A stretch of 64,000 bases of DNA from assembly GCA_016223205.1 (NCBI GenBank), contig JACRPM010000010.1, positions 26,441 to 90,440 on the forward strand, written 5' to 3'. The notes below the pieces were generated by a model. It had not been told where the DNA came from. It saw only the letters and a program-made list of their open reading frames with translations, and did not search any database. Both the position numbers and the translations under genes were made by a program. The first letter of the stretch is position 1, and the number at the start of each line of letters is the position of its first letter. Positions 2,417 through 61,278 of this stretch are shown here, one piece after another. This DNA is from Candidatus Saganbacteria bacterium (lineage in GTDB: Bacteria > Margulisbacteria > WOR-1 > XYC2-FULL-46-14 > WPAF01).

Positions 2417-4444
2417 ATGAAAATACCGTTAGAGTGGCTGAAAGATCTGGTGGAAGTGAAGATGAGGCCCCAGGAGCTGCAAGCGCGGCTCACCATGGCG
2501 GGACTGGAAGTGGGAGCGCTGGAAGGCGAGGTGCTGGATATTGATGTTCTGCCTAATAGGGGGGATTGTTTAAGCATTTTGGGAGTAGCTAGGGAAGTGA
2601 GCGCGGTTACAAATACGAAACTCAAGAAACCAGCGAATAAATTCGCGGTTAAATCTAAGCGAGACGGCTCGACCGAGCTCGCCGAGGTCTTCAGTCTCGG
2701 CTTACACAAGATGTCAATCGAAGTAAAAGACAAAGAACTTTGTCCGAGATATATGGCGAGAATGATAGAGAAGGTCTCGGTCGGGGAATCGCCGGAATGG
2801 CTGAAGAAGAGATTAGTGCTTGCCGGACTGCGGCCGATCAATAACATCGTGGATGCCACCAATTACGTCCTGATGGAACTCGGCCAACCCCTGCATGCCT
2901 TTGATGCGGGAAAGATTGGCGGCCAAAAGATCGTGGTGCGACGCGCCAAACCCGGCGAGAAGATCATCACTTTGGACGGGATGGAGCATAAACTTGGAAA
3001 AGATACGCTGGCCATCGCCGATGACCAAAGACCGATCGCCCTAGCGGGGGTGATGGGCGGGGCCAACACGGAAGTTTCTGCTTCTACCACTTCGGTATTG
3101 CTGGAATCCGCTTATTTCGATCCCACTTCCATCAACAAAACCTCCAAAGCGGCCAAACTGCGCACCGAGGCTTCCATCCGTTTTGAAAAAGGCGTGGATT
3201 GGGAAAGGGTGGAGCAGGCCCTTGACCGCGCGGCGGCCCTTATCGCCGAGCTTTCGGGAGGGAAGGTCACCGGTTATAAAGTTGATATTAAGTCCAGGGA
3301 CCGGAAACCGAAAATCCTGGAATTAAGGCAAGAACGGCTGAATAGGGTATTGGGGACCACGGTGCCGCTAAGTGAGGCCGCGAAGATATTAGTAAGGCTG
3401 GGATTTACCCGCCTTCGCCAAGGCTCCGGCGGGCAGGGGAAATTGAAAGTAGGGGTTCCGTTGTGGAGAGCGGGAGACATCGAACGGGAAATTGACTTAA
3501 TAGAAGAGGTGGCGCGCCTGCGAGGGTACGATCGCATACCTACAACCCTGCCCCGGCCCGCGGGCGAAGTTAGAGAAGACCGGAAATATGCCTTCCTCAA
3601 GAAAATAAAAGAAATATTGGTCGGCTGCGGATTGTACGAAGCGCAAACCTTTACCCTGGTAGATCCCCAGATGGCCGGAGAAGAAGCGGTTAAGCTGGCC
3701 AACCCCATGGCGCCCGAAGAATCGGTCCTGCGGACCGAAATGCTGCCCAGCCTACTTAGGGCGGTCTCTTATAATTTAAGGCGGCAGGTGGAAGACGTGA
3801 AGCTTTTTGAGATCGGGAAGGTGTTTTTGGAACCGCGGCGTTCAGCCGCAGGTTCCATTCCCGCGGGTAAACCCCGCGGTTCTCTTACCGAGGAAAGGCT
3901 AATTCTCGCCGGAGCATCGACCAACCTTGATTTTCTTGGTCTCAAAGGCATTGTGGAAAATCTATTGAATGAACTTACCTCCGATTGGAAGCTGGAATCC
4001 ACCGCCAAACGGGAGTATCATCCCGGACAATCCGCCGCCGTGATCGGAAAAAGCGGAAAACTGCTGGGTACTTTCGGCCGCCTGCACCCCGAACTAAAAC
4101 CGGAAGGGGTCTTGGTGTTCGAGTTTGATATCGACGCGCTGTTGGGTGAAGCGCAGATCGGCAAGCGTTATAAACCCCTTCCCAAATATCCCAAGGTGGA
4201 GCGGGATCTGGCCATGTTCGTGCCGCCGGGGGTTACCTCCGGGCAGATCATTTTGATCATCCGCCAGGCCGGCGGCAACATTGTGGAAGAAGTTCGACTT
4301 TTTGATATATTCAAGAACAGCCAGGCCTATCGCATTTCTTTCCGCGACCCGGAGCGGACCCTCACCGATGAGGTCGTGAACCGCGCTTTTCTTACCATCC
4401 AGGATGAACTAACCGGCAAACTCAAAGTCCAGATACGCAAATGA
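2417..4444 (+). CDS. pheT: Phenylalanine--tRNA ligase beta subunit (short form lacking the B2 OB-fold tRNA-binding domain)
   Basis: 675 aa. N-terminal MKIPLEWLKDLVEV B1 domain runs directly into the ...PNRGDCLSILGVAREV B3 region. B5 and FDX-ACB-like C-terminus present. Starts 2 nt after the pheS stop. Confidence 0.9.
   Translation: MKIPLEWLKDLVEVKMRPQELQARLTMAGLEVGALEGEVLDIDVLPNRGDCLSILGVAREVSAVTNTKLKKPANKFAVKSKRDGSTELAEVFSLGLHKMSIEVKDKELCPRYMARMIEKVSVGESPEWLKKRLVLAGLRPINNIVDATNYVLMELGQPLHAFDAGKIGGQKIVVRRAKPGEKIITLDGMEHKLGKDTLAIADDQRPIALAGVMGGANTEVSASTTSVLLESAYFDPTSINKTSKAAKLRTEASIRFEKGVDWERVEQALDRAAALIAELSGGKVTGYKVDIKSRDRKPKILELRQERLNRVLGTTVPLSEAAKILVRLGFTRLRQGSGGQGKLKVGVPLWRAGDIEREIDLIEEVARLRGYDRIPTTLPRPAGEVREDRKYAFLKKIKEILVGCGLYEAQTFTLVDPQMAGEEAVKLANPMAPEESVLRTEMLPSLLRAVSYNLRRQVEDVKLFEIGKVFLEPRRSAAGSIPAGKPRGSLTEERLILAGASTNLDFLGLKGIVENLLNELTSDWKLESTAKREYHPGQSAAVIGKSGKLLGTFGRLHPELKPEGVLVFEFDIDALLGEAQIGKRYKPLPKYPKVERDLAMFVPPGVTSGQIILIIRQAGGNIVEEVRLFDIFKNSQAYRISFRDPERTLTDEVVNRAFLTIQDELTGKLKVQIRK
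2633..2683. repeat. Family-3 palindromic mini-repeat (GCGAATAAATTCGCGGTTAAATYTARGCGAGA...), in-frame inside pheT
   Basis: About 34 nt are near-identical to copies at 55087-55131 and 61311-61344. It encodes KKPANKFAVKSKRDGSTELAE within a linker that is about 14 aa longer than in E. coli PheT. Confidence 0.55.
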
Positions 4445-4498
4445 CCTCACCCCGCCCTCGGCAAGCTCGGGCACCCCTCTCCATAAAATGGAGAGGGG
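4445..4498. repeat. Family-1 composite palindromic element (CCTCACCC + GC hairpin + CCCCTCTCCA-N5-TGGAGAGGGG)
   Basis: Perfect 10-bp stem hairpin cccctctccaTAAAAtggagagggg followed by TTATTAC. Fills the pheT-mutS spacer and may also act as a terminator. Confidence 0.6.
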
Positions 4499-4575
4499 TT
4501 ATTACAAACAGATTAACTATTGGCTATTTCAGGGATAACCTATGAAAAATCCCGAAGGTGATAAATCAGTAAGAT

Positions 4576-4632
4576 TCCCTCTCCACAAAGTGGAGAGGGA
4601 TGTCCCCCGGCTTGCCGGGGGACAGGGTGAGG
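4576..4632. repeat. Family-1 composite palindromic element (tccctctccaCAAAGtggagaggga + cccccggcTTGccggggg + GGGTGAGG), inverted orientation
   Basis: Lies just upstream of the likely mutS start, inside the N-terminal extension of track ORF 4542. Confidence 0.6.
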
Positions 4633-4640
4633 TGACCCCC

Positions 4641-6866
4641 ATGGTGGCCCAGTACCGCGAGATAAAAGCCCGCCACCAGGATGCTATCCTCTTTTACCGC
4701 TTGGGGGATTTTTACGAAATGTTCAACGAGGACGCCGAGCTCGCCAGCCGGGAGTTGGACCTGACTTTGACCGGCCGCGGCAAGGATGAGAACCGCATGC
4801 CCATGTGCGGCATTCCTTATCATGCGGCGCAGGGCTACATTGCCCGGCTGATCGAGAAGGGCTACAAGGTAGCTATCTGCGAACAGACCGAAGATCCCAA
4901 CCTGGCCAAGGGATTGGTCAAAAGGGAGGTCGTTCGCATCGTGACCCCGGGGACGGTGCTCGAATCCGATCTATTGTCCGAAAAAAGCAGCAACTATCTG
5001 GCGGCGATCTCTTTGGAGAAGGGGAAATACGGGCTGGCTTATGTCGAGGCCTCGACCGGCGAGTTCAAGACGACCGATTTTACGGATGAAACACAGCTTA
5101 AAGCCGAGATCGACCGCATCGCTCCCGCCGAGACCATCGCCGCAAAAAACGGCTCCGCGGTTGACGCCATACTAGAATATCTCAAGCAAAACCGCAAGAC
5201 CCGCTTAGGGCATATTGGAGAGGCGGTAAGATATTCGGTCGGCGAGTTCATGCTGATCGATCCGCAAACCCGGCGGAATTTGGAGCTTATCCAGACCATC
5301 CGCGACCGGGCTTTTAAAGGAAGCTTGCTTTGGGTTTTAGACCAGTGCCGGACCAGCATGGGCAGCCGCCTGCTTAAAAATTGGCTGCTGGCGCCGCTGC
5401 TCAACCGGGAGGAGATCGAGCGGCGGCTGGAGGCGGTGGCGGAATTACATGGAAACGCCATCCTGCGCGCCGAATTGTCCAGAGAACTCGATCAGGTCTT
5501 TGATATCGAGAGATTGACCGGAAGGGCGGCCTCCGGCGCCGCCAACGCGCGCGACCTTATCTCTTTGGCCGAATCCTTAACGCATTTGCCCCGTATCGCC
5601 GATATTCTGAAAAATTCCAAAACCTTGAAAGTTCCAAATCCCTTGCCCGAAGTAACGGACCTTATCCATAGGGCGATCGTAAATGACCCGCCGTTTGTCT
5701 TGACCGCAGGCGGGATCATCAAGGATGGATATAATGCCGAGCTCGATGAGCTCAAGCAGGCGGCTCGCGGCGGTAAAAGCTGGATCACGGAGCTGGAGAA
5801 TAAAGAACGCCTGCGCACCGGCATCAAATCCCTCAAAGTCGGTTTTACCAAGGTGTTCGGCTACTATATCGAAGTGAGCAACGCCAATCAATCAGCGGTT
5901 CCCGCCGATTATATCCGCAAGCAAACCCTGGTGAACTGCGAGCGCTTTATCACCCCGGAGCTCAAGGATAAAGAATCTTTCATCTTGAACGCCGAAGAAC
6001 GGCTGAAGGACATGGAATATAAGATATTCTGCGAAGTCCGCGAACAGGTCGCGGAGCACACCAAAGAGCTTCAATCCATCGCCCGCCAACTGGCCCGGAT
6101 AGATGTTCTGCTTTCTTTGGCCGAAGTCGCGGTCGCCAACAATTTCTGCCGCCCCCGGATCACCGGATCAGCGGATATCCGGATAACCGAATCGCGTCAC
6201 CCGGTTGTCGAAAAAACTCTCGGAGAACAAAAATTCACCCCAAACAACATTGTGATGGATGCTGAATCGCGATTTCTCATGATTACGGGGCCAAACATGG
6301 CGGGGAAAAGCACGTATATGCGGCAAGTTGCCCTCATCTGCCTTATGGCCCAGATCGGCTCCTTTGTCCCGGCCGCATCCGCCGAGCTTGCGATCATCGA
6401 CCGCATCTTTACCCGCATCGGGGCCATGGACGACATTTTCTCCGGCCAGTCCACCTTTATGCTGGAGATGACCGAGACCGCCAATATCTTAAAGAACGCA
6501 ACCGAGAACAGCTTGATAATTCTCGATGAAATAGGGCGGGGGACGGCGACTTTTGACGGCATGTCGATCGCGGCGGCGGTGGCGGAATATATCCACGAAA
6601 AGATCAAAGCGAAAACCTTATTCGCCACGCATTATCACGAAATAACCCAGCTGGCGGAAAAACACCCCGGCATGAAAAATTTCAATGTTCTGGTCAAAGA
6701 AGTTGGGGAGGAAATCACCTTTTTGCATAAGATCGCGGAGGGCCCGGCGGACAAATCTTACGGCATCGCGGTAGCCAAGCTGGCGGGCTTGCCCGCTGAA
6801 GTGGTTAAGCGCGCGCGCGAGGTCTATAATACGCTCGAAATGGCGGAAACCGACTTACTTGGCTAA
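4641..6866 (+). CDS. mutS: DNA mismatch repair protein MutS (lacks the C-terminal tetramerisation tail)
   Basis: Canonical N-terminus TPMVAQYREIKARHQDAILFYRLGDFYEMFNEDA. Walker A ITGPNMAGKSTYMRQ. Track ORF starts at 4542, but that region is a palindromic repeat. Start placed at ATG 4641 (MVAQY). Confidence 0.85.
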   Translation: MVAQYREIKARHQDAILFYRLGDFYEMFNEDAELASRELDLTLTGRGKDENRMPMCGIPYHAAQGYIARLIEKGYKVAICEQTEDPNLAKGLVKREVVRIVTPGTVLESDLLSEKSSNYLAAISLEKGKYGLAYVEASTGEFKTTDFTDETQLKAEIDRIAPAETIAAKNGSAVDAILEYLKQNRKTRLGHIGEAVRYSVGEFMLIDPQTRRNLELIQTIRDRAFKGSLLWVLDQCRTSMGSRLLKNWLLAPLLNREEIERRLEAVAELHGNAILRAELSRELDQVFDIERLTGRAASGAANARDLISLAESLTHLPRIADILKNSKTLKVPNPLPEVTDLIHRAIVNDPPFVLTAGGIIKDGYNAELDELKQAARGGKSWITELENKERLRTGIKSLKVGFTKVFGYYIEVSNANQSAVPADYIRKQTLVNCERFITPELKDKESFILNAEERLKDMEYKIFCEVREQVAEHTKELQSIARQLARIDVLLSLAEVAVANNFCRPRITGSADIRITESRHPVVEKTLGEQKFTPNNIVMDAESRFLMITGPNMAGKSTYMRQVALICLMAQIGSFVPAASAELAIIDRIFTRIGAMDDIFSGQSTFMLEMTETANILKNATENSLIILDEIGRGTATFDGMSIAAAVAEYIHEKIKAKTLFATHYHEITQLAEKHPGMKNFNVLVKEVGEEITFLHKIAEGPADKSYGIAVAKLAGLPAEVVKRAREVYNTLEMAETDLLG

Positions 6867-34475: not shown

Positions 34476-35735
34476 ATGAAAAAAGCGTTAGTATTTAGTT
34501 TGGTCTTATTCGTTGGGGTTACTATATTATTATTTGGTTGCGCTAAAGTGGTGGACACCACTTCTAGTTCCAGACTACCTGCAGGAGTGGCAGTAGGAAG
34601 CCCTATTTCCTCGCCCGAAGCCACAATTACCGGAGCAGTGGCAACTTCAGGTGGGGCAGTAAGACTAAATCTGGGCGGCATTATTCCGACCGGAGCTTCG
34701 AGTTCGGTTTCGATCGACCTTAGTCGTATGTCGGTTTATGCGGCTGCCGGGTCTCATGCTTCCGGGCTTTCGGCTTCAGATACCGCATCCTGGACGGCTC
34801 TTTCAACCGGATTTTATAGTGGTTCGGCCTCACCCATAGATGTTGTTTTTGTTCTGGATAACACCGGCAGTATGGGGGAAGAAATTACCGCGGTCAAAAA
34901 CAGCATTGTGGCTTTTGCCACCACGCTGGAAGCGGCAGGAGTGGATGCCAAATTTGCCCTGGTAACCTATGGCGACAGCGCCCTGCACCCCACACCCGCG
35001 GGCTTCATCACCAGCGAAAGTTTTACTGATGCATCCTTTATCAGACCGATCCTCGATCTAAGCACTGCCGCTAGATTGCAGGCCACGCTGGAAAGCGTAA
35101 CTGCGGACGGTGGAAGCGATACTCCGGAAAATCCGTTTGATTGCACAAAATGGGCTCTTCACACTAATGATACCACTGGAGCGCTTGATAACCTTACCTG
35201 GAGAGCCGGAGCTCAAAAGATATTTGTTATTATTACAGATGCCAGCGCCCATCAAAATATAGCCGCGGATACCAGCTCCGATAACAAATGCACTACTACT
35301 GCCACGCTTGAAGTTGCGCGTATGAGGAACTTCAATGCCAAGGTCTACGCCGTAAGCCCCAATTACACTTCGTCCCTGTCTCCCTACGCGGATGTTCGCA
35401 TGCTGGCGGACGGATTTGGAGAGGGAAGGACCACGGCGGAGGCGGTGACTTATACCAGCGGCGGACAATGGATCAGATTGCCCTCCGATGGCAATGTTGA
35501 CCTGACCGAACTGGGAATTTCAGACACTTTAACCGCCGGGCGTACAATTAACCTGTCAGGATATACCTTTGCCAATGGAACGGTTTATACCTTAATCGTT
35601 TATTACGACGTGACCGGTGACGGCATATTGGATAGCTACGCATATTTTGTGTTCACCTATTCATCTACCGCCGGCGCTTTGGGCATTCAGGGTAAACTGG
35701 TACCGATCGACGATCATCGACCCAGCTACAACTAG
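34476..35735 (+). CDS. Lipoprotein with von Willebrand factor A domain
   Basis: Signal peptide with lipobox-like LLFGC. vWA MIDAS context IDVVFVLDNTGSMGEEI...ALVTYGD. Confidence 0.6.
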   Translation: MKKALVFSLVLFVGVTILLFGCAKVVDTTSSSRLPAGVAVGSPISSPEATITGAVATSGGAVRLNLGGIIPTGASSSVSIDLSRMSVYAAAGSHASGLSASDTASWTALSTGFYSGSASPIDVVFVLDNTGSMGEEITAVKNSIVAFATTLEAAGVDAKFALVTYGDSALHPTPAGFITSESFTDASFIRPILDLSTAARLQATLESVTADGGSDTPENPFDCTKWALHTNDTTGALDNLTWRAGAQKIFVIITDASAHQNIAADTSSDNKCTTTATLEVARMRNFNAKVYAVSPNYTSSLSPYADVRMLADGFGEGRTTAEAVTYTSGGQWIRLPSDGNVDLTELGISDTLTAGRTINLSGYTFANGTVYTLIVYYDVTGDGILDSYAYFVFTYSSTAGALGIQGKLVPIDDHRPSYN

Positions 35736-35749
35736 CCCGCGGATCAAGA

Positions 35750-35785
35750 ACGGCCCCGGCTTGCAAGCCGGGGCCGTTTCATTTA
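35750..35785 (+). terminator. Rho-independent terminator: perfect 14+14 palindrome ACGGCCCCGGCTTG/CAAGCCGGGGCCGT followed by TTTCATTT
   Basis: GC-rich 28-nt perfect palindrome followed by a T-rich tract, 15 nt after the stop of the vWA gene. Confidence 0.6.
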
Positions 35786-35789
35786 ATAT

Positions 35790-35858
35790 ATGACCATGCC
35801 AAAGACCATCGTCATCATGCCCGCCTATAACGCCGAGAAGATATTAAAAAATGAATAA
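35790..35858 (+). pseudogene. Orphan 5' fragment of the GT2 glycosyltransferase gene (MTMPKTIVIMPAYNAEKILKNE*), displaced by insertion of the DUF1016 gene
   Basis: 33 nt TCGTCATCATGCCCGCCTATAACGCCGAGAAGA are identical at 35808-35840 and 36887-36919. The fragment carries the ATG start and first 17 codons of the gene that continues at 36872. Confidence 0.55.
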
Positions 35859-36879
35859 AAAAATCAGCAAAGAGAGCAAGTATCATAAACTGATAGATTC
35901 GATTGGGGCGCTTCTGCAACAGGCGCGACAAAAAGCGTTTCAGCAGATTAATAATTTAATCGTGAAAACCTATTGGGAAATCGGCAGGTATATAGTAGTT
36001 TATGAGCAGGAAAACAAGGTTAAAGCGGAATATGGCTCGAAATTGCTGGACAAAATCGCTTATGATCTGAAAGGGAGATACGGGAAGGGTTTTAGCCGAA
36101 GCAATGTCGTATACATGAGATTGCTGTATCTTAAATACCCCAAAAGTCAGACACTGTCTGACCAATTGAGCTGGAGTCATTACGTTGAGCTGTTGGGGGT
36201 TTCAGATGATCTGGCTCGCTCTTTTTATGAAAAAGAATGTCTTGTTAACCGCTGGAGCGTAAGAGAGCTGGAAAGACAAATTAATTCTATGCTTTTTGAG
36301 CGTCTGGCACTAAGCAAAGACAAGCAAGGCGTGCTGGCGCTGGCTGCCAAGGGCCACAAAATAGAGAAAGCCGAGGACGTAGTCAAAAACCCATATATTC
36401 TGGAATTTCTGGGTATACCGGAAGATTATCGCTATTCCGAAAAAGAGCTCGAACAAAAAGTCATCGATAATATGCAAAACTTCTTGCTTGAGCTGGGTAA
36501 AGGATTTACTTTCGTGGCGCGCCAGTATCGCCTCACATTAAACAATAAGCATTTCCATGTTGACCTGGTTTTTTATCATCGGATTTTGAAATGCTTTGTT
36601 TTGATCGATCTAAAACTGGGAGCGATTACCCATTATGATATAGGGCAAATGAATATGTATCTAAATTATTTCAAGAAAGAAGAAATGGCCGAAGATGATA
36701 ATGAGCCGATAGGTATTGTTTTAGGCGCCGAGAAGAAGCATATTTTGGTTGAATATGCTTTAGGCGGAATTTCCAACAAACTTTTCGCTTCAAAATACCA
36801 GCTATCACTGCCCAACAAATATCTTTTGCAGAAAGCGGTCGAAAATATTATAACTCGCGAGAAAAAACACCGTGCTTAA
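35851..36879 (+). CDS. PDDEXK-nuclease-fold protein, DUF1016 / YhcG family
   Basis: 342 aa. Core FHVDLVFYHRILKCFVLIDLKLG (D...D/ExK-like) typical of YhcG. Lies inside a roughly 1.05 kb insertion bounded by the 33-bp direct repeats. Confidence 0.7.
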   Translation: MNKKISKESKYHKLIDSIGALLQQARQKAFQQINNLIVKTYWEIGRYIVVYEQENKVKAEYGSKLLDKIAYDLKGRYGKGFSRSNVVYMRLLYLKYPKSQTLSDQLSWSHYVELLGVSDDLARSFYEKECLVNRWSVRELERQINSMLFERLALSKDKQGVLALAAKGHKIEKAEDVVKNPYILEFLGIPEDYRYSEKELEQKVIDNMQNFLLELGKGFTFVARQYRLTLNNKHFHVDLVFYHRILKCFVLIDLKLGAITHYDIGQMNMYLNYFKKEEMAEDDNEPIGIVLGAEKKHILVEYALGGISNKLFASKYQLSLPNKYLLQKAVENIITREKKHRA

Positions 36880-37573
36880 AACAGTCGTCATCATGCCCGC
36901 CTATAACGCCGAGAAGACACTGGAAAAGACCTACCGGGATATCCCCAAGGACCAGGTCTCCGAGATCATTTTGGGGGATGATTGTTCACAGGACAAAACA
37001 ATTGAAATCGCCGAAAAGTTGGGCATTCGCGTCCTTAAAACCCCGCACAACCTGGGTTACGGCGGCAACCAGAAAATGCTGTATCGGGAAGCCCTCAAGA
37101 GGGGAGCGGATGTGATCGTGATGGTGCATCCCGACTGGCAGTACGATGCCACTAAAATTCCGGAGATGGTCGCGCCCATTGCGGCCGGAGAAAAAGACGT
37201 TATGATGGGCTCGAGGGTGCTGGGCGGGGGGACGCTGGCGGGGGGCATGCCCATCTGGAAATACATCAGCAACCGCTTCCTCACCTGGTGTGAGAATATG
37301 ACTTTTCGTCTTGATCTTTCCGAATACCACACCGGCTTCCGCGCTTTTTCCCGCAAGGTATTGGAAACCATCCCTTTTGAGAAGAATTCCAACGATTTTG
37401 TCTTTGACACCGAGGTTCTGGCGGAGGCGGCCCGGAAAAAATTCAGGGCCGGGGAGATCGCAGTACCCTGCCGCTATTTTTCCGAGGCCTCGGAGATCAA
37501 TTTTGTCCGCAGTTCGGTCTACGGTCTGCAGACCTTATGGGTATGTCTTAAGTATTGGTTGAATCTCATATGA
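36872..37573 (+). CDS. Family 2 glycosyltransferase (polyprenyl-phosphate sugar transferase-like)
   Basis: VVIMPAYNAEKTL...GDDCSQDKT GT-A DxD context. 233 aa. The current GTG start lies inside the inserted DUF1016 element. Confidence 0.8.
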   Translation: MLKTVVIMPAYNAEKTLEKTYRDIPKDQVSEIILGDDCSQDKTIEIAEKLGIRVLKTPHNLGYGGNQKMLYREALKRGADVIVMVHPDWQYDATKIPEMVAPIAAGEKDVMMGSRVLGGGTLAGGMPIWKYISNRFLTWCENMTFRLDLSEYHTGFRAFSRKVLETIPFEKNSNDFVFDTEVLAEAARKKFRAGEIAVPCRYFSEASEINFVRSSVYGLQTLWVCLKYWLNLI

Positions 37574-50485: not shown

Positions 50486-50639
50486 GGTAAATAGGGGAGA
50501 GGGAATGGGGAAGGGGAGAGCACGGAACTTAGAACATAGGGTAAGATCCCTGTGCTCTGTGTTCAGTGCCTGCCTGCCGGCAGGCAGGTTCCGTGCTCCG
50601 TGTTCATTTTTCCCTCACTCTTCACGATTTACTATTTCC
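50486..50639. repeat. Element A: ~150-nt imperfect palindromic repeat with GAACTTAGAACA submotifs and an internal perfect 20-nt palindrome CCTGCCTGCCGGCAGGCAGG (50569-50588)
   Basis: Left end GGTAAATAGGGGAGAGGGAATGGGGAAGG. Right end TTCCGTGCTCCGTGTTCA...CACGATTTACTATTTCC. 11-nt inverted repeat GAGCACGGAAC/GTTCCGTGCTC. Homologous to element C (52341-52499) and partially to element B (51081-51144). Confidence 0.6.
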
Positions 50640-50729
50640 AGTTTTTCTTATTATTGAGCCAAATACTAATTTTGCAGAAGATTGGCATACTAATTGCTAG
50701 GGTGGTGGTTAGGAAGGGAGGTGAAAGAA

Positions 50730-51080
50730 ATGTTCATATTTGAGAATTTGGAGGCCTACAAAAAGGCGGTTGCCCTTGCCAAGAAAATATTCTCCGCAAA
50801 TCGAAGGATTAAGGACCGAACCATCAAGGATCAACTTTGCCGCGCAGTCCTTTCTGTCCCGCTAAACATTGCGGAGGGGCAAGGGCGATACCACCAAAAA
50901 GAAAAGCGGCAATTTTACTGCACGGCAAAGGGTTCACTATACGAAAGTCTGCCGCTGGTGCAACTGTGTTTCGAGCTACAGTATTTCGATATGGCACAAT
51001 ACGAAGAAATATATGGTCTGATGAATGAGATAGGGCGAGTTTTGTCGGGGCTTATAAGATCAGTGAAGGGGGAGGAGTGA
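50730..51080 (+). CDS. Four-helix-bundle protein (23S rRNA intervening-sequence protein family, TIGR02436; Avd-like)
   Basis: MFIFENLEAYKKAVALAKKIF...LCRAVLSVPLNIAEGQGRYHQKEKRQFYCTAKGSLYESLPLVQLCFELQYF matches the 4HB / IVS-protein pattern. GGAGGTG ribosome-binding site 7 nt upstream. Track ORF starts at 50694. Confidence 0.75.
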   Translation: MFIFENLEAYKKAVALAKKIFSANRRIKDRTIKDQLCRAVLSVPLNIAEGQGRYHQKEKRQFYCTAKGSLYESLPLVQLCFELQYFDMAQYEEIYGLMNEIGRVLSGLIRSVKGEE

Positions 51081-51144
51081 ATAGCGAAGGTTAGAACACA
51101 GAACTTAGAACACGGAACTTGGAGCATAGGGCGGAATCGCTATT
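51081..51144. repeat. Element B: short hairpin repeat with tandem AGAACAC(A/G)GAACTT units, between the convergent 4HB and FHA genes
   Basis: AATAGCGAAGG...GAATCGCTATT stem enclosing TTAGAACACAGAACTTAGAACACGGAACTTGGAGCATAGGG. Probable bidirectional terminator. Shares submotifs with elements A and C. Confidence 0.5.
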
Positions 51145-52248
51145 TTAATCTTCTTTAGGTGTGGCCTCGGGCAAAGCCGGCGCGCTCATGGCCTCAATTA
51201 ATTGATTTCTGACCGCCTGTGCTTTTAAACTATCAGCCTTCTCCAAAAGCCCCAGAAAACGATCTCTTTCCGCGGGATTTCTGACTGCTAATAATCTGGC
51301 AATTTCTCGCACATCAAATTGAAATAATATATGGCAAATACTATCATCTAATTTTCTGTGAGCCGCTTTGTTTGAAGATCGGTAGCTTGCCAATGAGCCA
51401 GCGGCACCGCCAATAAAACCACCAATACAAACTAAAGTCGAAATGGGAAAAAGTAAGCCCATTATTCCCCAGCCTACTCCAGAACCTAATAGAGTTTGAA
51501 TAAACGTATTTCTCCAGTCGCGCCGGATTTTATCTTTTCTTTCTAGATAAATAGTGAGAAGTTCATCTGTCGTTCTTGCTTCCGCAAAATCAGTCCCTTC
51601 GATCAGAGATGGATCGATTCGCTTGGTAACTGTCAACCCTTGTTCGGCAATAAAGGTTTGAACTATCGCCAATTGTTCCTGTCGAGCTTGAGCTACTTCC
51701 GGCGTGACCTCTTCAATGGGCGGACGGGTGGCTAAAAGCAGACGGACATCTTCACCGATTTCTTTGGCGGTTTCTAATTGTATCTCCAGATATCTGCCGT
51801 TTTTACCAGGAATAGCACCGCTTAAGTGCAGAACCAACCGTGCGCCCTCGGGTATTAAGCTGCCTTCGAGATTCTTGTCGGTTGGAACAGTTATGGGCCG
51901 GCCGTTCGGCTTAAGGAGGGTAATCGGCTTGTCGGAATAATTTAGGATGCGGAAACTTTTACCCTGCTGATGAATGATCTGCGCATGGTTTAAGTCAATC
52001 TGCGGATCATTGATCCGGATTTCACAGCTTCGATCGCGACCTATGGAGATCGAACCGCCTACGGGAAGATAAATCTTCTGGCCGCCGATATGCAGGGTGG
52101 CTGCGATATTCGCGTTCATCTGGGGATTTAAAAACTGGTTCCGAACCCTTACCCGCACCTCCCCGCCGCCCCTGGCCTCCGCGTTGAATCCAATGTACCT
52201 TTCTCTGACCGCTGTTCTGACCGCTCTAACCGCTCTAACTATTCCCAT
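51145..52248 (-). CDS. FHA-domain protein with C-terminal glycine-zipper transmembrane region
   Basis: FHA core SISIGRDRSCEIRINDPQIDLNHAQIIHQQGKSFRILNYSD...NGRPI. C-terminal LLGSGVGWGIMGLLFPISTLVCIGGFIGGAAGSLASY. Real start is probably MNANIAATL (52119). The 5' extension is a 9-mer tandem repeat (GTTAGAGCG)x2. Confidence 0.55.
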   Translation of the reverse strand: MGIVRAVRAVRTAVRERYIGFNAEARGGGEVRVRVRNQFLNPQMNANIAATLHIGGQKIYLPVGGSISIGRDRSCEIRINDPQIDLNHAQIIHQQGKSFRILNYSDKPITLLKPNGRPITVPTDKNLEGSLIPEGARLVLHLSGAIPGKNGRYLEIQLETAKEIGEDVRLLLATRPPIEEVTPEVAQARQEQLAIVQTFIAEQGLTVTKRIDPSLIEGTDFAEARTTDELLTIYLERKDKIRRDWRNTFIQTLLGSGVGWGIMGLLFPISTLVCIGGFIGGAAGSLASYRSSNKAAHRKLDDSICHILFQFDVREIARLLAVRNPAERDRFLGLLEKADSLKAQAVRNQLIEAMSAPALPEATPKED

Positions 52249-52340
52249 TGATGTCCCTCCTAGAGGATCTGCTTTCCTATGTATATATCGTTAAAAACGA
52301 GGCCGGATTTCACTTATTAAGGGATATTTTTAGAATTGAT

Positions 52341-52499
52341 TAAATAGGGAGGAGTAAATTGGGAAGGTTAGAACACAGAACTTAGAGCACCGAACTTAGA
52401 ACACAGGGCGGAATCCCTCCCTGTGCTCCGTGCTCCGTGTTCTGTGTTCCGTGCTCCATGTTCTTTCCGTCCCTCTCCACTATTCCCTATTTACTATCC
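52341..52499. repeat. Element C: ~160-nt imperfect palindromic repeat (long hairpin) with tandem GAACTTAGAACAC units
   Basis: Left arm GGAAGGTTAGAACACAGAACTTAGAGCACCGAACTTAGAACACAGGG. Right arm CCCTGTGCTCCGTGCTCCGTGTTCTGTGTTCCGTGCTCCATGTTCTTTCC. Termini TAAATAGGGAGGAG / CCCTCTCCACTATTCCCTATTTACTATCC are homologous to the element A termini. Confidence 0.6.
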
Positions 52500-57269: not shown

Positions 57270-58544
57270 TCAGTCGCTGGTTACTAAGATTATCGAATTA
57301 TAGGTTATATCAACCAATTTTCTAAGTTCTGCTTCCGAAATGCTCAAAGGCGGCATAAGCACAATGACATTTCCCAGCGGTCGAAGGATCGCGCCCAATT
57401 TGCGGGCTCTCAATATCACCGGTTGCGCGGGAATATTTAGTTCGATCCCCACCATAAATCCCAATTGCCTGATCTCTTTTACCTGCTTTAATTTGGTGAA
57501 GGGCTTTAACGATTGAGACAGCAATTTTATTTTGGGCTGAAGCTTCTCGATCGTTCTTTCTTTCCTGAAGATCTCCAGATTAGCGAGGGCAGCGGCGCAG
57601 GCCAAAGGATTTCCGGTATAAGTATGGCCGTGGTAAAAGGTGTGATCAAGGAAAGCCCGGTAGATCTTTTCAGATGTTAAGGTAGCAGCCAGGGGCAAGT
57701 ATCCCCCGGTAATTCCTTTGGCGACACACATCAGGTCGGGCGTGATGCCAACGTGCTCGCAGGCGAACATTTTACCGGTTCGTCCAAAGCCGGCGGCCAC
57801 TTCATCCACGATCAAAAGCACATCATATTTTGAGCATAATCTGCGGACCGCTTTGAGATATCCCGGCGGATAAAACAGCATCCCGGCGGCGGCCTGGATA
57901 AGCGGTTCTACGATCATCGCGGCGATCTCTGGATGGCGGGTTTTCAGGATGTTTTCGAGCGCCTGGATATTTCCCGACGGCACTTTCAGCGATTTAAAAA
58001 GCAGGGGTTTATAGGTTTTATGGAAAAGGTCTATGCCCCCGACCGACACCGAGCCGATGGTATCGCCGTGATAGGCGTTGGTCAGGGTGAGGAATTTGGT
58101 TTTACCCCCTCTCTTTCTCCCCCTTAATAAGGGGGAGACGGAGGAGGGGGTGATCTGCCAATAATGGAAAGCCATCTTTAAGGCGATCTCCACCGCCTCC
58201 GAGCCCGAGTCGGAATAAAAGACACGAGTTAAACCCCGGGGAGCGAGCTTTACCAGTTTTTCCGCCAATTCTATCGAAGGGACATTGCCCAGGCCTAAAA
58301 GTGTAGAGTGGGCGATCTTTTTTAATTGGTTTTCGATGGCCCGGTCGAGCTCGGCCTTACGGTGGCCGTGGACCGTGACCCAGAGGGAAGAAACCCCGTC
58401 CAGGTATTTTCTGCCTTTGGTATCAAAGAGATAACTGCCTTTCCCCCTTTCGATGATGAGAGGTTCGCTCTTTTCCCAACCCTTCTGGTCGGTAAAAGGA
58501 TGCCAGAGGTATTGCCGGTCTTTTTTATCTAGCGCTTTTGCCAT
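57270..58544 (-). CDS. bioA: Adenosylmethionine-8-amino-7-oxononanoate aminotransferase
   Basis: 424 aa. N-terminal DRQYLWHPFTDQ. PLP-aminotransferase class III fold. Contains an in-frame family-2 repeat. Confidence 0.9.
   Translation of the reverse strand: MAKALDKKDRQYLWHPFTDQKGWEKSEPLIIERGKGSYLFDTKGRKYLDGVSSLWVTVHGHRKAELDRAIENQLKKIAHSTLLGLGNVPSIELAEKLVKLAPRGLTRVFYSDSGSEAVEIALKMAFHYWQITPSSVSPLLRGRKRGGKTKFLTLTNAYHGDTIGSVSVGGIDLFHKTYKPLLFKSLKVPSGNIQALENILKTRHPEIAAMIVEPLIQAAAGMLFYPPGYLKAVRRLCSKYDVLLIVDEVAAGFGRTGKMFACEHVGITPDLMCVAKGITGGYLPLAATLTSEKIYRAFLDHTFYHGHTYTGNPLACAAALANLEIFRKERTIEKLQPKIKLLSQSLKPFTKLKQVKEIRQLGFMVGIELNIPAQPVILRARKLGAILRPLGNVIVLMPPLSISEAELRKLVDITYNSIILVTSD
58104..58152. repeat. 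Family-2 palindromic element (ACCCCCTCTCTTTCTCCCCCTT-AATA-AGGGGGAGA...GAGGGGGTG), in-frame in bioA, preceded by GGGTGAGG
   Basis: It encodes QITPSSVSPLLRGRKRGGKTK, which is about 12 aa longer than the corresponding E. coli BioA segment YWQARGEARQRF. Near-identical copy at 60275-60343. Confidence 0.6.
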
Positions 58545-59167
58545 TTGAGCTTAGCCATGATCGGGATACCCGTTAGTTCTTCTATCACTTCTGTATTAGT
58601 CCTTTCCGAGAGATCTTTACGTTTAAACCCGTTAAGGACTATTCCCGCGATCCGTATCTTCCTTTTTCTTAAGGCCTCCACCGTAAGCAATGTATGGTTG
58701 ATGGTGCCCAGCCCCGCCCGCGCCACCACAAGGGCGGGCAGGCCCAGATCTTTTATCAGGTCCGCCACCAGATAATCGCGTTTTATGGGTACCATAACCC
58801 CGCCGATCCCCTCCACCAGCAGGCAATCGTGTTTATTTGATAATTTATGAAAAGCGGAAAATATTGGGGATAAAGAAAGCTTTTTCTTTTGCAGTTGGGA
58901 AGCGGGGTAGGGGGCGAGGGGCAAGGAAAGATGGATAGGATTTATCAAGTTGATAGGGTCTTTCAATTTGAGTTTTCTTTTTAGATAAAGAGCGTCATTC
59001 TCTTTCTGCGGGCCGCAGGAGATGGGTTTCATTACGCCAATATCCAGCCCCTCTTTTTTCAAGAGTTCCGCCAGCCAGAGCGTGACGTAGGTCTTGCCTA
59101 CGCCGGTATCAGTTCCCGTAATGAAGAAGCCAGGCAAGCTATATCCTCCTTGGTGTGCTGGGCGCAA
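58529..59167 (-). CDS. bioD: Dethiobiotin synthetase
   Basis: GFFITGTDTGVGKTYVTLWL P-loop. 212 aa. Overlaps bioF by 70 nt and bioA by 16 nt. Confidence 0.85.
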   Translation of the reverse strand: MRPAHQGGYSLPGFFITGTDTGVGKTYVTLWLAELLKKEGLDIGVMKPISCGPQKENDALYLKRKLKLKDPINLINPIHLSLPLAPYPASQLQKKKLSLSPIFSAFHKLSNKHDCLLVEGIGGVMVPIKRDYLVADLIKDLGLPALVVARAGLGTINHTLLTVEALRKRKIRIAGIVLNGFKRKDLSERTNTEVIEELTGIPIMAKLKWQKR

Positions 59168-60273
59168 ATTGTGAGCCGCAGACGGCTTTGACCCGGGGGC
59201 ACGGTCGGCGGGCGGATGGCCGAAAGCAAAATGCCGCGGGTGAAAAGTTGATTGGAGATTTCTAATGTTTTTTCGGGTGGGCCTATGATGATAGGAATGA
59301 TGGGGGATAAGGAACCTGGGGCTGAACGCCCCGGTTCCTTGGAGCCGCGACGTTCAGTCGCAGGCGAAGAATAGTAATCAATATTTTTTCTCAATTTTTC
59401 AAGAAGGGATAAATCCTTCTCGATCAACTCCAGCGCGGCCAGGGCAGCAGCGCAGGAGGCAGGCGGCAGGGCGGTGGTATAAATGAACGAACGCGATTTA
59501 TTGCGCAGGTAATCGATCAAATTCTTTGGACCTGCCACAAAGCCGCCCAGGGAGCCGATGGCCTTGGATAAAGTTCCCATCACGATGTCGGTTCGGCCTT
59601 CGCAATTAAAATGTTCTTCCAGACCTCTTCCTGTCTTCCCGAGCACTCCCGTAGAATGGGCCTCGTCTATCATCACTAAGGCCTTATGATTTTTTGCCAG
59701 CATTAATATATCGAGCAGCGGCGCCAGGTCCCCGTCCATGCTGAAGACCGAATCGGTTACGATAAGCCGCTTGCCGAAGTTTTGCGACTTGCCCAGGAGC
59801 TTTTCCAAAGCATTCATATCCCGATGGGGGAAGACCTGCAGTTTGGCGCGGGATAATTTGCAGGCATCGATTATCGAGGCATGATCCAGGCGGTCGATGA
59901 TCACGGTATCTTTTTCGTCTACCAATGCGGAAACAACGCCCAGGTTAGCCATAAAGCCGGTAGGGAAAACGATCGCCGCTTCTCTTTTTTTGAACTCGGC
60001 TATCTTCCGCTCGAGCTTTTCGTGAAGAACAAGGTTGCCGGAAATTAAACGAGACGCTCCCGCTCCAGTGCCGTACTTTTCTACTGCTTCTTTGGCGGCA
60101 GCCACGACTGCCGGATGATTCGCCAAGCCCAGATAATTGTTAGAGCAGAAATTCAGATAGAGTTTTTCGTCGATGGTTACCGTTCGGCCATCGGTCTTCT
60201 CAATGGTCTTAAGCGAGCGATAAAGGCCGGAATCTTTGATATCCGACAATTCTTTTTCGATGAAGTCCAGCAT
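59098..60273 (-). CDS. bioF: 8-amino-7-oxononanoate synthase
   Basis: 391 aa. PLP-dependent acyl-CoA transferase fold. C-terminal ...AIRPPTVPPGQSRLRLTI. Contains a low-complexity in-frame insertion encoded by two hairpin repeats. Confidence 0.9.
   Translation of the reverse strand: MLDFIEKELSDIKDSGLYRSLKTIEKTDGRTVTIDEKLYLNFCSNNYLGLANHPAVVAAAKEAVEKYGTGAGASRLISGNLVLHEKLERKIAEFKKREAAIVFPTGFMANLGVVSALVDEKDTVIIDRLDHASIIDACKLSRAKLQVFPHRDMNALEKLLGKSQNFGKRLIVTDSVFSMDGDLAPLLDILMLAKNHKALVMIDEAHSTGVLGKTGRGLEEHFNCEGRTDIVMGTLSKAIGSLGGFVAGPKNLIDYLRNKSRSFIYTTALPPASCAAALAALELIEKDLSLLEKLRKNIDYYSSPATERRGSKEPGRSAPGSLSPIIPIIIGPPEKTLEISNQLFTRGILLSAIRPPTVPPGQSRLRLTICAQHTKEDIACLASSLRELIPA
59311..59361. repeat. Two GC-clamped hairpin repeats in-frame in bioF (GGAACCTGGGGC-TGAACG-CCCCGGTTCC and GCCGCGACGTTCAGTCGC)
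   Basis: The second hairpin is 17/17 identical to 57261-57277 (gltD/bioA convergent spacer). The first resembles the GGAACC...GGTTCC hairpin at 46976-47003. They encode SSPATERRGSKEPGRSAPGSL in place of the roughly 14-aa KQRLEEAGF... segment of E. coli BioF. Confidence 0.5.
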
Positions 60274-61278
60274 TTACCCCCTCTCTTTCTCCCCCTTGGC
60301 AAGGGGGAGAGGTCCCGAGCTTTGTCGAGGGACAGAGGGGGTGTCTACTTCTAACCCCAAATCCGCTAACATCCGCAAATCTTTCTCCGGCGCCTGGCCC
60401 TTGGTCGTCAAATAATCCCCGATCAAAGTCACATTCGCTCCTGCCAAAAACATCAAGGGCTGGAGCGTGCCCAACGATAATTCCCTCCCCCCAAAGACGC
60501 CGATATCCTTGTCCTGCAATATCAGTCGATAAACCGCCACCAGACGGAGTACTTCCAAAGGTGGCATAGGCCGATAATTTTTTGCGGCGGGAGTGCCGGG
60601 GATGGGATTTAAGATATTTATCGGTACGGAATCCACCTTGAGTTCCGCCAGAGTGAAGGCCAGCTCCACTCTCTGCTCCGGTGTTTCCCCTAGGCCGAAA
60701 ATGCCGCCCGAACAAACCTCTAAACCCTCTGCTTTTGCCGCTTTGATGGTGGCCAATCTTTCCTGGTAAGTATGCGTGGTGCAAACCTGGTTGAAAAAGC
60801 TTTCCGCGGTCTCGAGATTATGGTGTAATCGCTTCAGCCCGGCGGCCTTGAGTTTTTTGATCTGCTCTTTGGAAAGCGTACCGAGCGAAACACAACGATC
60901 CAGCTTAGTTTGGCTTTTAATGGCGGAAAGGACCCCGGCAATGTCCTCAATTTCCTGGTCGGTTTTGACCGATTTTCCGGCGGTCACTATACTAAAGCAG
61001 GTGGCGTGGAAATTCTTTTCGGAATCGGTAGCGGATTTAAACATCTCATCCTTGGAGAGCAGGGGGTAGATGGGTGTTTTGGTTGAAAAATGGCCGGATT
61101 GGGCGCAGAACGAACAGTTCTCGCTGCAGCGGCCCGATTTGGCGTTAACGATCGCGCAGAGCTTTACTTTATTACCTTTGAATTTCCGGCGGGTCTCGTC
61201 GGCTTTAGCCAAAAGAGAGAAGGTCTCTTCGTCGGAAGAATTAATAAGATTTATTGCTTCTTTGAAAGATAAGGTCAT
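60274..61278 (-). CDS. bioB: Biotin synthase (radical SAM)
   Basis: CSENCSFC Fe-S/SAM motif. 334 aa. The C-terminal tail ...PLPLAKGEKERG is encoded by a family-2 palindromic element. Confidence 0.9.
   Translation of the reverse strand: MTLSFKEAINLINSSDEETFSLLAKADETRRKFKGNKVKLCAIVNAKSGRCSENCSFCAQSGHFSTKTPIYPLLSKDEMFKSATDSEKNFHATCFSIVTAGKSVKTDQEIEDIAGVLSAIKSQTKLDRCVSLGTLSKEQIKKLKAAGLKRLHHNLETAESFFNQVCTTHTYQERLATIKAAKAEGLEVCSGGIFGLGETPEQRVELAFTLAELKVDSVPINILNPIPGTPAAKNYRPMPPLEVLRLVAVYRLILQDKDIGVFGGRELSLGTLQPLMFLAGANVTLIGDYLTTKGQAPEKDLRMLADLGLEVDTPSVPRQSSGPLPLAKGEKERG
60275..60343. repeat. Family-2 palindromic element at the bioB/bioF junction (ACCCCCTCTCTTTCTCCCCCTT-GGC-AAGGGGGAGAG + GTCCC...GGGAC + CAGAGGGGGTG)
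   Basis: 24 of 26 nt identical to the bioA copy. It supplies the last 10 codons and the stop of bioB. The bioF ATG follows the TAA directly. Confidence 0.6.

Follow-up and report, generated by a model that had tools for sequence, protein, structure and literature searches.

The DNA studied here is a 64-kb stretch from Candidatus Saganbacteria (contig JACRPM010000010.1, positions 26,441 to 90,440), in which a gene for a DUF1016/YhcG-type nuclease interrupts the beginning of a glycosyltransferase family 2 (GT2) gene. By the window we mean this whole 64-kb stretch; all window coordinates are relative to its position 1, and the features of the locus lie on the plus strand unless stated otherwise. 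The insert is a foreign, horizontally acquired gene put after codon 15-17 of the conserved GT2 gene. It is bounded by two exact copies of a 33-nt segment of GT2, it has left the original start of the gene as an orphan stub, and the same GT2 5' end carries other cargo in related Saganbacteria. We place high confidence in the event, its anatomy and the hotspot; our confidence in the recombination mechanism is moderate.

Two exact copies of the 33-mer TCGTCATCATGCCCGCCTATAACGCCGAGAAGA are present in the window, a left one at 35809-35841 and a right one at 36885-36917. A second exact 33-mer was obtained by chance in none of 100 shuffles of the window. The preliminary description of this DNA, made from the letters alone, had already reported a 33-nt direct duplication, and the duplication is real, although its second copy had been placed 2 nt too far downstream (36887-36919). 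A search of the window for additional copies, either of the 33-mer or of the nuclease gene, found none. Nor does the window hold a tandem array around the repeat, which the preliminary description had named as something that would speak against an insertion. When mismatches are allowed, the repeat extends to 49 nt (35793-35841 against 36869-36917, 88% identical), and a longer alignment covers 59 nt at 83%. The six mismatches of the 49-nt copy all lie in its first 16 nt, left of the core, and the 33 nt that follow are free of them. These 16 nt match at 10 of 16 positions (p about 0.002); on the other side of the core, 6 of 12 nt match. In the right-hand copy, the 16 nt before the core are rich in AT, as the insert is.

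Between the two copies lie 1043 nt of inserted DNA (35842-36884), in agreement with the earlier estimate of roughly 1.05 kb. The GC content of the insert is 39.9%, as compared with 53.0% both for the flanks and for the window as a whole. The insert holds a single intact open reading frame (ORF) at 35851-36879, 9 nt before its ATG and 5 nt after its stop, with no second gene. DUF1016_N and YhcG_C were the only domains detected in it, and no transposase or recombinase domain was found; the ends of the insert carry no terminal inverted repeats, and no recombinase is encoded among the neighbouring VWA, GT2 and pilin genes. Neither the target (z 0.07 to 1.3) nor either junction nor the empty site folded better than shuffled sequences, and the target site shows no dyad symmetry. 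Transposition is excluded by the lack of inverted repeats and of a transposase and by duplications of great and variable length (33 nt here; 21-51 nt elsewhere). Integrase action lacks support as well: there is no recombinase in or beside any insert, the junctions vary, and the site is devoid of structure or symmetry.

A search for the uninterrupted gene in relatives, which the preliminary description had proposed, found it in L116, a contig from a close relative. In L116 the VWA gene is followed by the same terminator hairpin, the same spacer GACGGCCCCGGCTTGCAAGCCGGGGCCGTTTCATTTAATATAT and then an uninterrupted GT2. Removal of 35842-36917, which corresponds to one repeat copy plus the insert, renders the window colinear with L116, and the event is therefore an insertion in the window; the 1043 nt are absent from L116. 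In an empty allele of the window locus, ...GAGAAGA would be joined directly to CACTGGAAAAG, with the native upstream sequence kept. The similarity between the two genomes is uneven over the locus. The tract made of the terminator and the stub (35750-35841 against 774-865 of L116) is 93.5% identical, whereas the 3' end of the VWA gene and the body of GT2 are 69% and 80% identical, respectively. That this tract is closer to L116 than the coding flanks are suggests a recent recombinational exchange between the lineages. Two further GT2 proteins of the cluster, P0243 and P0249, are annotated from M8 (226 aa), as in the window; P0243 is otherwise identical to the L116 GT2 and lies on a 743-kb contig. 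P0243 and P0249 may represent further occupied alleles.

The displaced start of GT2 can be read directly upstream of the insert. The VWA-domain gene (34476-35735) is followed by a strong intrinsic-terminator hairpin at 35748-35779, with a 14-bp stem and a T-rich tail, and this hairpin ends 10 nt before the stub ORF. The stub, MTMPKTIVIMPAYNAEKILKNE with its stop codon (35790-35858), reads MTMPKTIVIMPAYNAEK, is cut after codon K17 and then runs for five codons into the insert, which encodes ILKNE and the stop, for 22 codons in all. Its first 17 codons are GT2-like, as the preliminary description had recognized, and 15 of them are native. The closest GT2 orthologues begin MPK(T/I)IVIMPAYNAEKTLEKT, so that the native GT2 start is probably the second ATG, at 35796, inside the stub. 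This comparison of N-termini identifies the stub as the original 5' end of GT2.

The full-length GT2 gene (36872-37573) begins with GTG, encodes 233 aa with a Glycos_transf_2 match and stands at the head of a pilin operon, prepilin-type genes following it downstream. The right copy of the repeat provides codons 5-16 of this working gene, and the first four codons, GTG CTT AAA ACA, are new. The GTG start lies in the last codons of the nuclease gene and restores MLKTV before VIMPAYN, which is the first beta-strand of the GT-A fold; residue 6 is the first one in the Pfam match. The earlier proposal that the end of the insert supplies a new start for GT2 is thus borne out. NCBI calls the gene from the ATG at 36893 instead (226 aa), a choice that would lose most of the first beta-strand; the nuclease is deposited there as MBI5699928.1, on a contig that also holds MBI5699929.1. 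The GT2 protein is 90% identical to its orthologues over the full length and is most like polyprenyl-phosphate sugar transferases, yet it scores far below the curated cut-offs. With GT2 still full length, the function of the host gene appears to have been preserved, as had been claimed.

The stub, the nuclease gene and GT2 are chained by two stop/start overlaps of 8 nt each. The stop of the stub (35856-35858) lies inside ATGAATAA (35851-35858), which holds the ATG of the nuclease gene, and the stop of the nuclease gene (36877-36879) lies inside GTGCTTAA (36872-36879), which holds the GTG of GT2. No consensus promoter was found on the plus strand near the starts of the stub, the nuclease gene and GT2. 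Because the three reading frames are chained in this manner, the insert may borrow the transcription and the start of GT2, having no obvious signals of its own, and ribosomes would be handed from the stub to the nuclease gene and on to GT2 by termination and reinitiation.

The inserted gene (35851-36879) encodes an intact protein of 342 aa, which is 100% identical to MBI5699928.1 from a Candidatus Saganbacteria metagenome-assembled genome. DUF1016_N is matched with an E-value of 1e-44 and 152.5 bits (Pfam cut-off 32.8; PF17761), YhcG_C with an E-value of 4e-57 and 193 bits (Pfam cut-off 32.5; PF06250), and the PADLOC candidate profile PDC-S02 with an E-value of 4e-139 over residues 2-338. The putative catalytic residues E214, D238, D253 and K255 do not vary among 35 homologues. 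AlphaFold gave a model of moderate quality (pLDDT 71) with a helical N-terminal half and an alpha-beta-beta-beta-alpha-beta C-terminal core; its best fold matches in the PDB are the nuclease domains of NucS/EndoMS, Bax1 and AdnAB, with weak E-values of about 2e-3. A sequence search of the PDB returned no solved relative, nor did we find a published assay of nuclease activity. With both the signature and the fold present, the DUF1016 protein is a predicted PD-(D/E)XK nuclease. The literature describes DUF1016 as an uncharacterised PD-(D/E)XK family that is found beside restriction-modification genes and as cargo on mobile elements. In the only test of protection that we found, reported in a preprint, one representative each of PDC-S02 and PDC-S01 gave no protection against T4, T5 or T7 in E. 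coli (10.1101/2024.09.26.614923).

Relatives of the nuclease at about 70% identity are found in Margulisbacteria, Ratteibacteria, Patescibacteria and DPANN archaea, and the DUF1016 family is therefore horizontally mobile. The nearest copy, in L001, is 85% identical at the nucleotide level, with the similarity restricted to 35874-36849, and nearly every homologue has a C-terminal tail of its own past LLQKAVExI. What is conserved is thus the body of the ORF, the ends of which are remade at each location. Viral contigs yielded 27 distant DUF1016 homologues (41-59% identity), none of them near enough to define donor flanks. In Ratteibacteria-like contigs (L150-L159) an identical DUF1016 protein (P0042) is accompanied by a DUF6933 partner. 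The right flank of this pair is fixed and consists of a V-type ATPase operon; the left flanks vary by sample and include a ResIII helicase, AAA_16, argininosuccinate synthase, a permease, PIN/RHH and PemK, which places the pair at the edge of a hypervariable region.

The GT2 5' end has been used more than once in related Saganbacteria. In L007, where GT2 is 88% identical and the synteny from VWA to GT2 is kept, copies of the GT2 5' end stand at 3110-3160 and 3723-3770 and the gene itself at 5002. The cargo between these copies is a Phd/ParE toxin-antitoxin pair and then an AAA_14-DUF4143 ATPase, so that the order is stub, toxin-antitoxin cassette, stub, ATPase and GT2, single cassettes separated by a repeated site. 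The single-nucleotide differences among the three copies are mosaic, the pattern expected from crossing-over between copies. No intact nuclease is present in L007. Both of its stubs are, however, directly followed by remnants of the interior of a DUF1016 gene, which correspond to window 36142-36174 (91% over 33 nt, E-value 2e-7) and 36149-36171 (96% over 23 nt), and therefore a DUF1016 gene was once present there too. The matching segment of the window nuclease gene, 36142-36174, encodes KSQTLSDQLSW, contains a 7-bp hairpin (z -1.3) and recurs after both L007 stubs. The preliminary description had held that a relative with the same stub and gene but lacking the nuclease would count against it. 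L007 is such a case in a modified form, with two stubs and no intact nuclease, but with the remnants behind both.

A second occupied relative, the 1.67-Mb Saganbacteria contig L103, carries an exact 26-nt repeat, ATGCCCAAAACCATAGTCATCATGCC, on either side of an AAA_14-DUF4143 ATPase gene on the opposite strand; its left repeat copy also keeps the last codons and the stop of the upstream gene. Both ATPases match PADLOC PDC-S01, and they are 23% identical to each other; therefore L007 and L103 are independent events. In L008 and L009 this position is taken by a PDDEXK_3 (GxxExxY) gene, with no recognisable stub. L144, L147 and L149 have no insert, and their GT2 directly follows whichever gene is upstream. 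Across these genomes the gene upstream of GT2 differs by lineage while GT2 and the pilin genes are constant, the repeats at the GT2 5' end range from 26 to about 51 nt, the junction positions differ as well, and the cargo families are mostly PD-(D/E)XK. Recurrence of DUF1016 itself at this site in other hosts is limited to the 23-33-nt remnants in L007, the other relatives having different cargo. Outside Saganbacteria, about 75 GT2 loci from other phyla had one 5' copy each. Among 49 metagenome loci with the conserved 20-mer a true second copy was found in L103 only; a second copy in L107 was rejected as a stub, being a tandem paralogue. No viral contig contained the GT2 block. The comparison points to the GT2 5' end as a recombination hotspot, and not as the site of a self-homing element. 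In a separate Saganbacteria contig (L142, 83-3508) DUF1016, AAA_14-DUF4143 and PDDEXK_3 genes, the families of the GT2 site, stand in a row, and the PDDEXK_3 gene is bracketed by imperfect direct repeats of about 175 nt.

These related loci also bear on whether the structure could be an artefact of assembly, in which a graph loop at the shared 33-mer threads a separate molecule into the chromosome. The length of 33 nt is a k value of SPAdes, and 21 nt, the length of a repeat in L013 described below, is likewise a common k-mer size. The final k of metagenome assemblers is, however, larger than 33, and the junctions are therefore covered by unique k-mers. A chance join would not yield reading frames, stop/start overlaps and an in-frame GTG as orderly as these, and analogous structures appear in four assemblies from different projects and assemblers, with repeats of 26 and 45-51 nt. 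Such an artefact is very improbable.

The observations would be fitted best, with moderate confidence, by one-sided homologous recombination anchored in GT2 together with an illegitimate join on the other side. The incoming DNA would already have carried the cassette directly upstream of a diverged GT2. On the right side a homologous crossover would have taken place in the conserved MPAYNAEK-coding block of GT2, and on the left side an illegitimate join would have occurred a few codons further into the resident GT2, the 5' end of which would have been pushed upstream as the orphan stub. Arrays such as that of L007 would then grow through unequal crossing-over between the repeated 5' ends, and recombination between two copies would restore the empty site. 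Since GT2 is conserved while the upstream genes differ between lineages, its 5' end could serve as a recurrent landing site for small selfish or defence-candidate cassettes.

The shape of the repeat is in line with this sequence of events. The right copy grades leftward into homeology, the left copy stops abruptly at the insert, and the upstream synteny varies. The 16-nt stretch before the right-hand core scores 16-18/24 against orthologous GT2 starts and keeps the near-invariant K3, and one GT2 orthologue also begins with GTG. On account of these scores, the AT-richness, the 10/16 match, K3 and the GTG-starting orthologue, the 16 nt look like a diverged GT2 start that was brought in with the cassette.

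Several points weigh against one-sided homologous recombination. No donor with DUF1016 directly upstream of a GT2 starting GTGCTTAAAACAG (MLKTV) was found, and the key intermediate is therefore hypothetical. The left junction lies just 9 nt before the nuclease ATG, and the cassettes of L007 end 1-2 nt past their stops. Edges as tight to the ORF as these are not predicted by random illegitimate joins and would need selection for compactness or coupling, or else another mechanism. The translational coupling is itself read from the overlaps alone. When the 5' block was tested as the sole long conserved stretch of GT2 in which a crossover could occur, others were found to exist. Finally, the exact and sharp-edged repeats of L103 (26 nt) and L013 (21 nt) look equally like target duplications made in situ.

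On the other hand, duplications of gene ends similar to that of the window are found elsewhere in the lineage, in these two contigs, and we count them in favour of the recombination model. In L103 the last 145 nt of GT2 are duplicated (3915-4059 and 4741-4885, 90% identical) around a gene for a 23S_rRNA_IVP four-helix-bundle protein (4250-4615), so that this GT2 has an insert plus a duplication at both of its ends. In L013, also from Saganbacteria, the upstream gene has its 3' end repeated exactly over 21 nt (5975-5995 and 6744-6764) on either side of GT2 (6001-6744), which here has no pilin genes after it, as if it had been inserted as a single ORF. A process acting precisely on ORFs could duplicate the target in situ, either by filling in staggered breaks 21-33 nt apart or by template switching at a stalled fork. 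It would account for the exactness and the sharp edges of the repeats in the window (33 nt), L103 (26 nt) and L013 (21 nt), for repeats in L103 and L013 that cover poorly conserved codons, and for ORF-sized inserts with imperfect microhomology at their junctions. However, no enzyme is known to make duplications of such variable length, and the sample is small and was ascertained through GT2. All six mismatches of the 49-nt copy fall in the 16 nt left of the core (chance about 0.001), and with the mismatches confined to one side, two diverged homologues explain the repeat better than decay of a 49-nt duplication. We therefore regard duplication in situ as quite unlikely.

The preliminary description had seen in the locus the signature of a site-specific or homing-like event. 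In its selfish form, the DUF1016 protein would cut the MPAYNAEK-coding sequence of an empty GT2 and repair would copy its gene into the break, while the 5' duplication would spare the host gene and stand in for the splicing of an intron or intein. Part of the evidence is compatible with this. The nuclease ORF is intact with conserved catalytic residues, and its clade is spread at about 70% identity over bacterial and archaeal phyla; the insert contains only an ORF and lies in the most conserved coding block of a widespread gene, of which both empty and occupied alleles exist; DUF1016 remnants occur at the same site in a second genome (L007); and the cargo at the GT2 site is mostly of PD-(D/E)XK families. 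However, each 33-nt copy is contiguous with one native flank, and every site of up to 33 bp persists in the occupied allele, which would therefore be recut and lacks the self-immunity that classical homing needs. Non-nuclease ParE/Phd and unrelated ATPases occupy the same site with different junctions, and the differing repeat lengths and junctions argue against a fixed cleavage or crossover site. Flanking duplications are absent from 33 of 34 other DUF1016 loci, as described below, and no report of a DUF1016 protein as a homing enzyme, or as self-mobile, was found in the literature. The part of the earlier claim that stands is a real insertion of a nuclease ORF with an empty allele in L116; the site-specific part is disfavoured by the other cargo, the variable junctions and the lack of self-immunity. 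Classical homing is unlikely.

A small circle that uses the GT2 5' block as its attachment site is a further candidate explanation. A cassette of 1076 bp, consisting of the nuclease ORF and one repeat copy, would integrate by a Campbell-type single crossover and could excise again, either through RecA or through a recombinase acting in trans, and arrays of the L007 type would then resemble arrays of integrons or pdif modules. The residual similarity to GT2 on both sides of the core (10/16 and 6/12) fits a GT2 5' mimic borne by the element, L007 consists of single cassettes separated by a repeated site, and direct repeats of 26-51 nt would permit excision. Against this, there is no recombinase in or next to the inserts, the crossover positions and repeat lengths vary by event, and the site is without secondary structure or dyad symmetry. 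A homology of 26-33 bp is the lower limit for RecA, and the junction expected of a circle, ...TTAAAACAG-core-TATTAAAAAATG... (or ...GCTTAAAACAG-core-TATTAAAAAATG), was not observed. The circular cassette is a doubtful explanation in our judgement.

Other DUF1016 loci were examined for duplications of the kind found here, as the preliminary description had advised. In a systematic test of 34 such loci for flanking repeats, 33 were at background. The sole exception was L168, a predicted viral contig, in which the DUF1016 gene lies between direct repeats of about 150 nt (1695-1837 and 2933-3083); the repeated sequence is intergenic and AT-rich and includes a dyad. In a separate test, L001 (2590-5225, and the same in L002-L004) was found to carry two tandem DUF1016 genes in an array of 64-nt repeats (TTCGGATTTAGGATTTAGGAC...). 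One of these genes is 88-90% identical to the window protein, and the C-terminus of the second is fused to the repeat unit at a short microhomology. With L168 and L001 as the only cases, a flanking duplication is not a general hallmark of the DUF1016 family. It is conceivable, though we give it a small probability, that DUF1016, AAA_14-DUF4143 and similar genes are minimal selfish elements in the form of bare ORFs, with an undescribed gene-end insertion process of their own that would duplicate 20-50 nt of the target, or as much as about 150 nt, so as to keep the host gene alive and would wire the insert into host translation.

Other repeats were noted in the window, apart from the GT2 locus. 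A 23S_rRNA_IVP gene at 50694-51080 lies within inverted arms of GAACAC(A/G)GAAC-type motifs (region 50590-52418), and a 72-nt direct repeat (51070-51141 and 52347-52418, 88%) surrounds a minus-strand FHA-domain ORF at 51145-52248. Similar arms of simple motifs surround DUF1016, GxxExxY and IVP genes in L001, L008, L103 and L142. A 38-nt repeat (58101-58138 and 60273-60310, 92%) contains the palindrome TCTCCCCCTT..AAGGGGGAGA; one copy lies within an ORF for a BioA-like aminotransferase, the other at the boundary between a BioF-like ORF (59098-60273) and a BioB-like one (60274-61278), within the last codons of the latter. It looks like a small hairpin element that is tolerated in coding sequence.

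Integrase elements that restore their target gene are known from phage 21 and e14 in icd and from tRNA-targeting islands. The locus resembles these in its identical 33-nt core at both junctions and in an element-borne, diverged gene end (MLKTV versus MPKTI); it differs in the lack of an integrase, in a one-gene insert of 1 kb, in the duplication of the 5' and not the 3' end and in a core of varying length. Direct repeats of target sequence flank the insert as they do insertion sequences and miniature inverted-repeat transposable elements, but their repeats usually measure 2-14 nt, against 33 nt here with a length that varies between events, and the insert has neither terminal inverted repeats nor a transposase. 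The single cassettes of L007, separated by a repeated site, recall integron and pdif arrays, although there is no structured attC or Xer-type site and no recombinase nearby. With free-standing homing endonuclease genes (the seg and mob genes of T4-like phages) the locus shares a nearly bare nuclease ORF in or beside a highly conserved gene, presence and absence among relatives and a patchy host distribution. Unlike in those, the 33-bp duplication leaves the putative target intact, unrelated cargo shares the site, and homing by DUF1016 is only hypothetical. The window nuclease and the two ATPases of this site strongly match the models of the PADLOC phage-defence candidates PDC-S02 and PDC-S01, known from variable defence-island hotspots, and lie at a synteny breakpoint beside a conserved operon; the label "defence" denotes a candidate only, and nothing at this locus shows defence.

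The closest parallel in terms of one-sided homologous recombination is provided by the orphan arrays at Rhs, contact-dependent inhibition (CDI) and type VI secretion system (T6SS) effector-immunity loci, which have been attributed to homology-facilitated illegitimate recombination (PMC5361080, citing de Vries and Wackernagel 2002 and Prudhomme et al. 2002). In both settings a conserved segment would serve as the anchor, the incoming DNA would carry its own copy of it plus new cargo, the end of the resident gene would be displaced as an orphan, and repeats of the event would build arrays (L007 in our case) with no dedicated recombinase. In both, too, the mechanism has been deduced. The anchor here is the 5' end of a housekeeping-type GT2, whereas there it is the constant part of the toxin gene. 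The orphans are the mirror image: upstream 5' stubs of 15-17 codons here, downstream 3' toxin tips there. The cargo here consists of single PD-(D/E)XK, ATPase or toxin-antitoxin genes. What sets the locus apart from known orphan-leaving acquisition is the use of the 5' end of a housekeeping-type gene and the defence-candidate cargo.

DUF1016 and AAA_14-DUF4143 genes are very common, patchy in distribution and enriched in variable regions; as PDC-S02 and PDC-S01 they are the two most abundant single-gene defence candidates. The present locus lets one read, at base-pair resolution, the site in its empty form, the two junctions, the stub that was displaced and the rescue of the host gene. Orphan gene-end stubs are a simple signature that is searchable at scale. 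Should the reading of these genes as bare-ORF selfish elements prove true, the window would be a fresh and unusually legible example of that process. A model that combines a conserved-gene anchor, an orphan 5' stub and translational coupling would account for the entry of such genes into compact genomes with few classical mobile elements.

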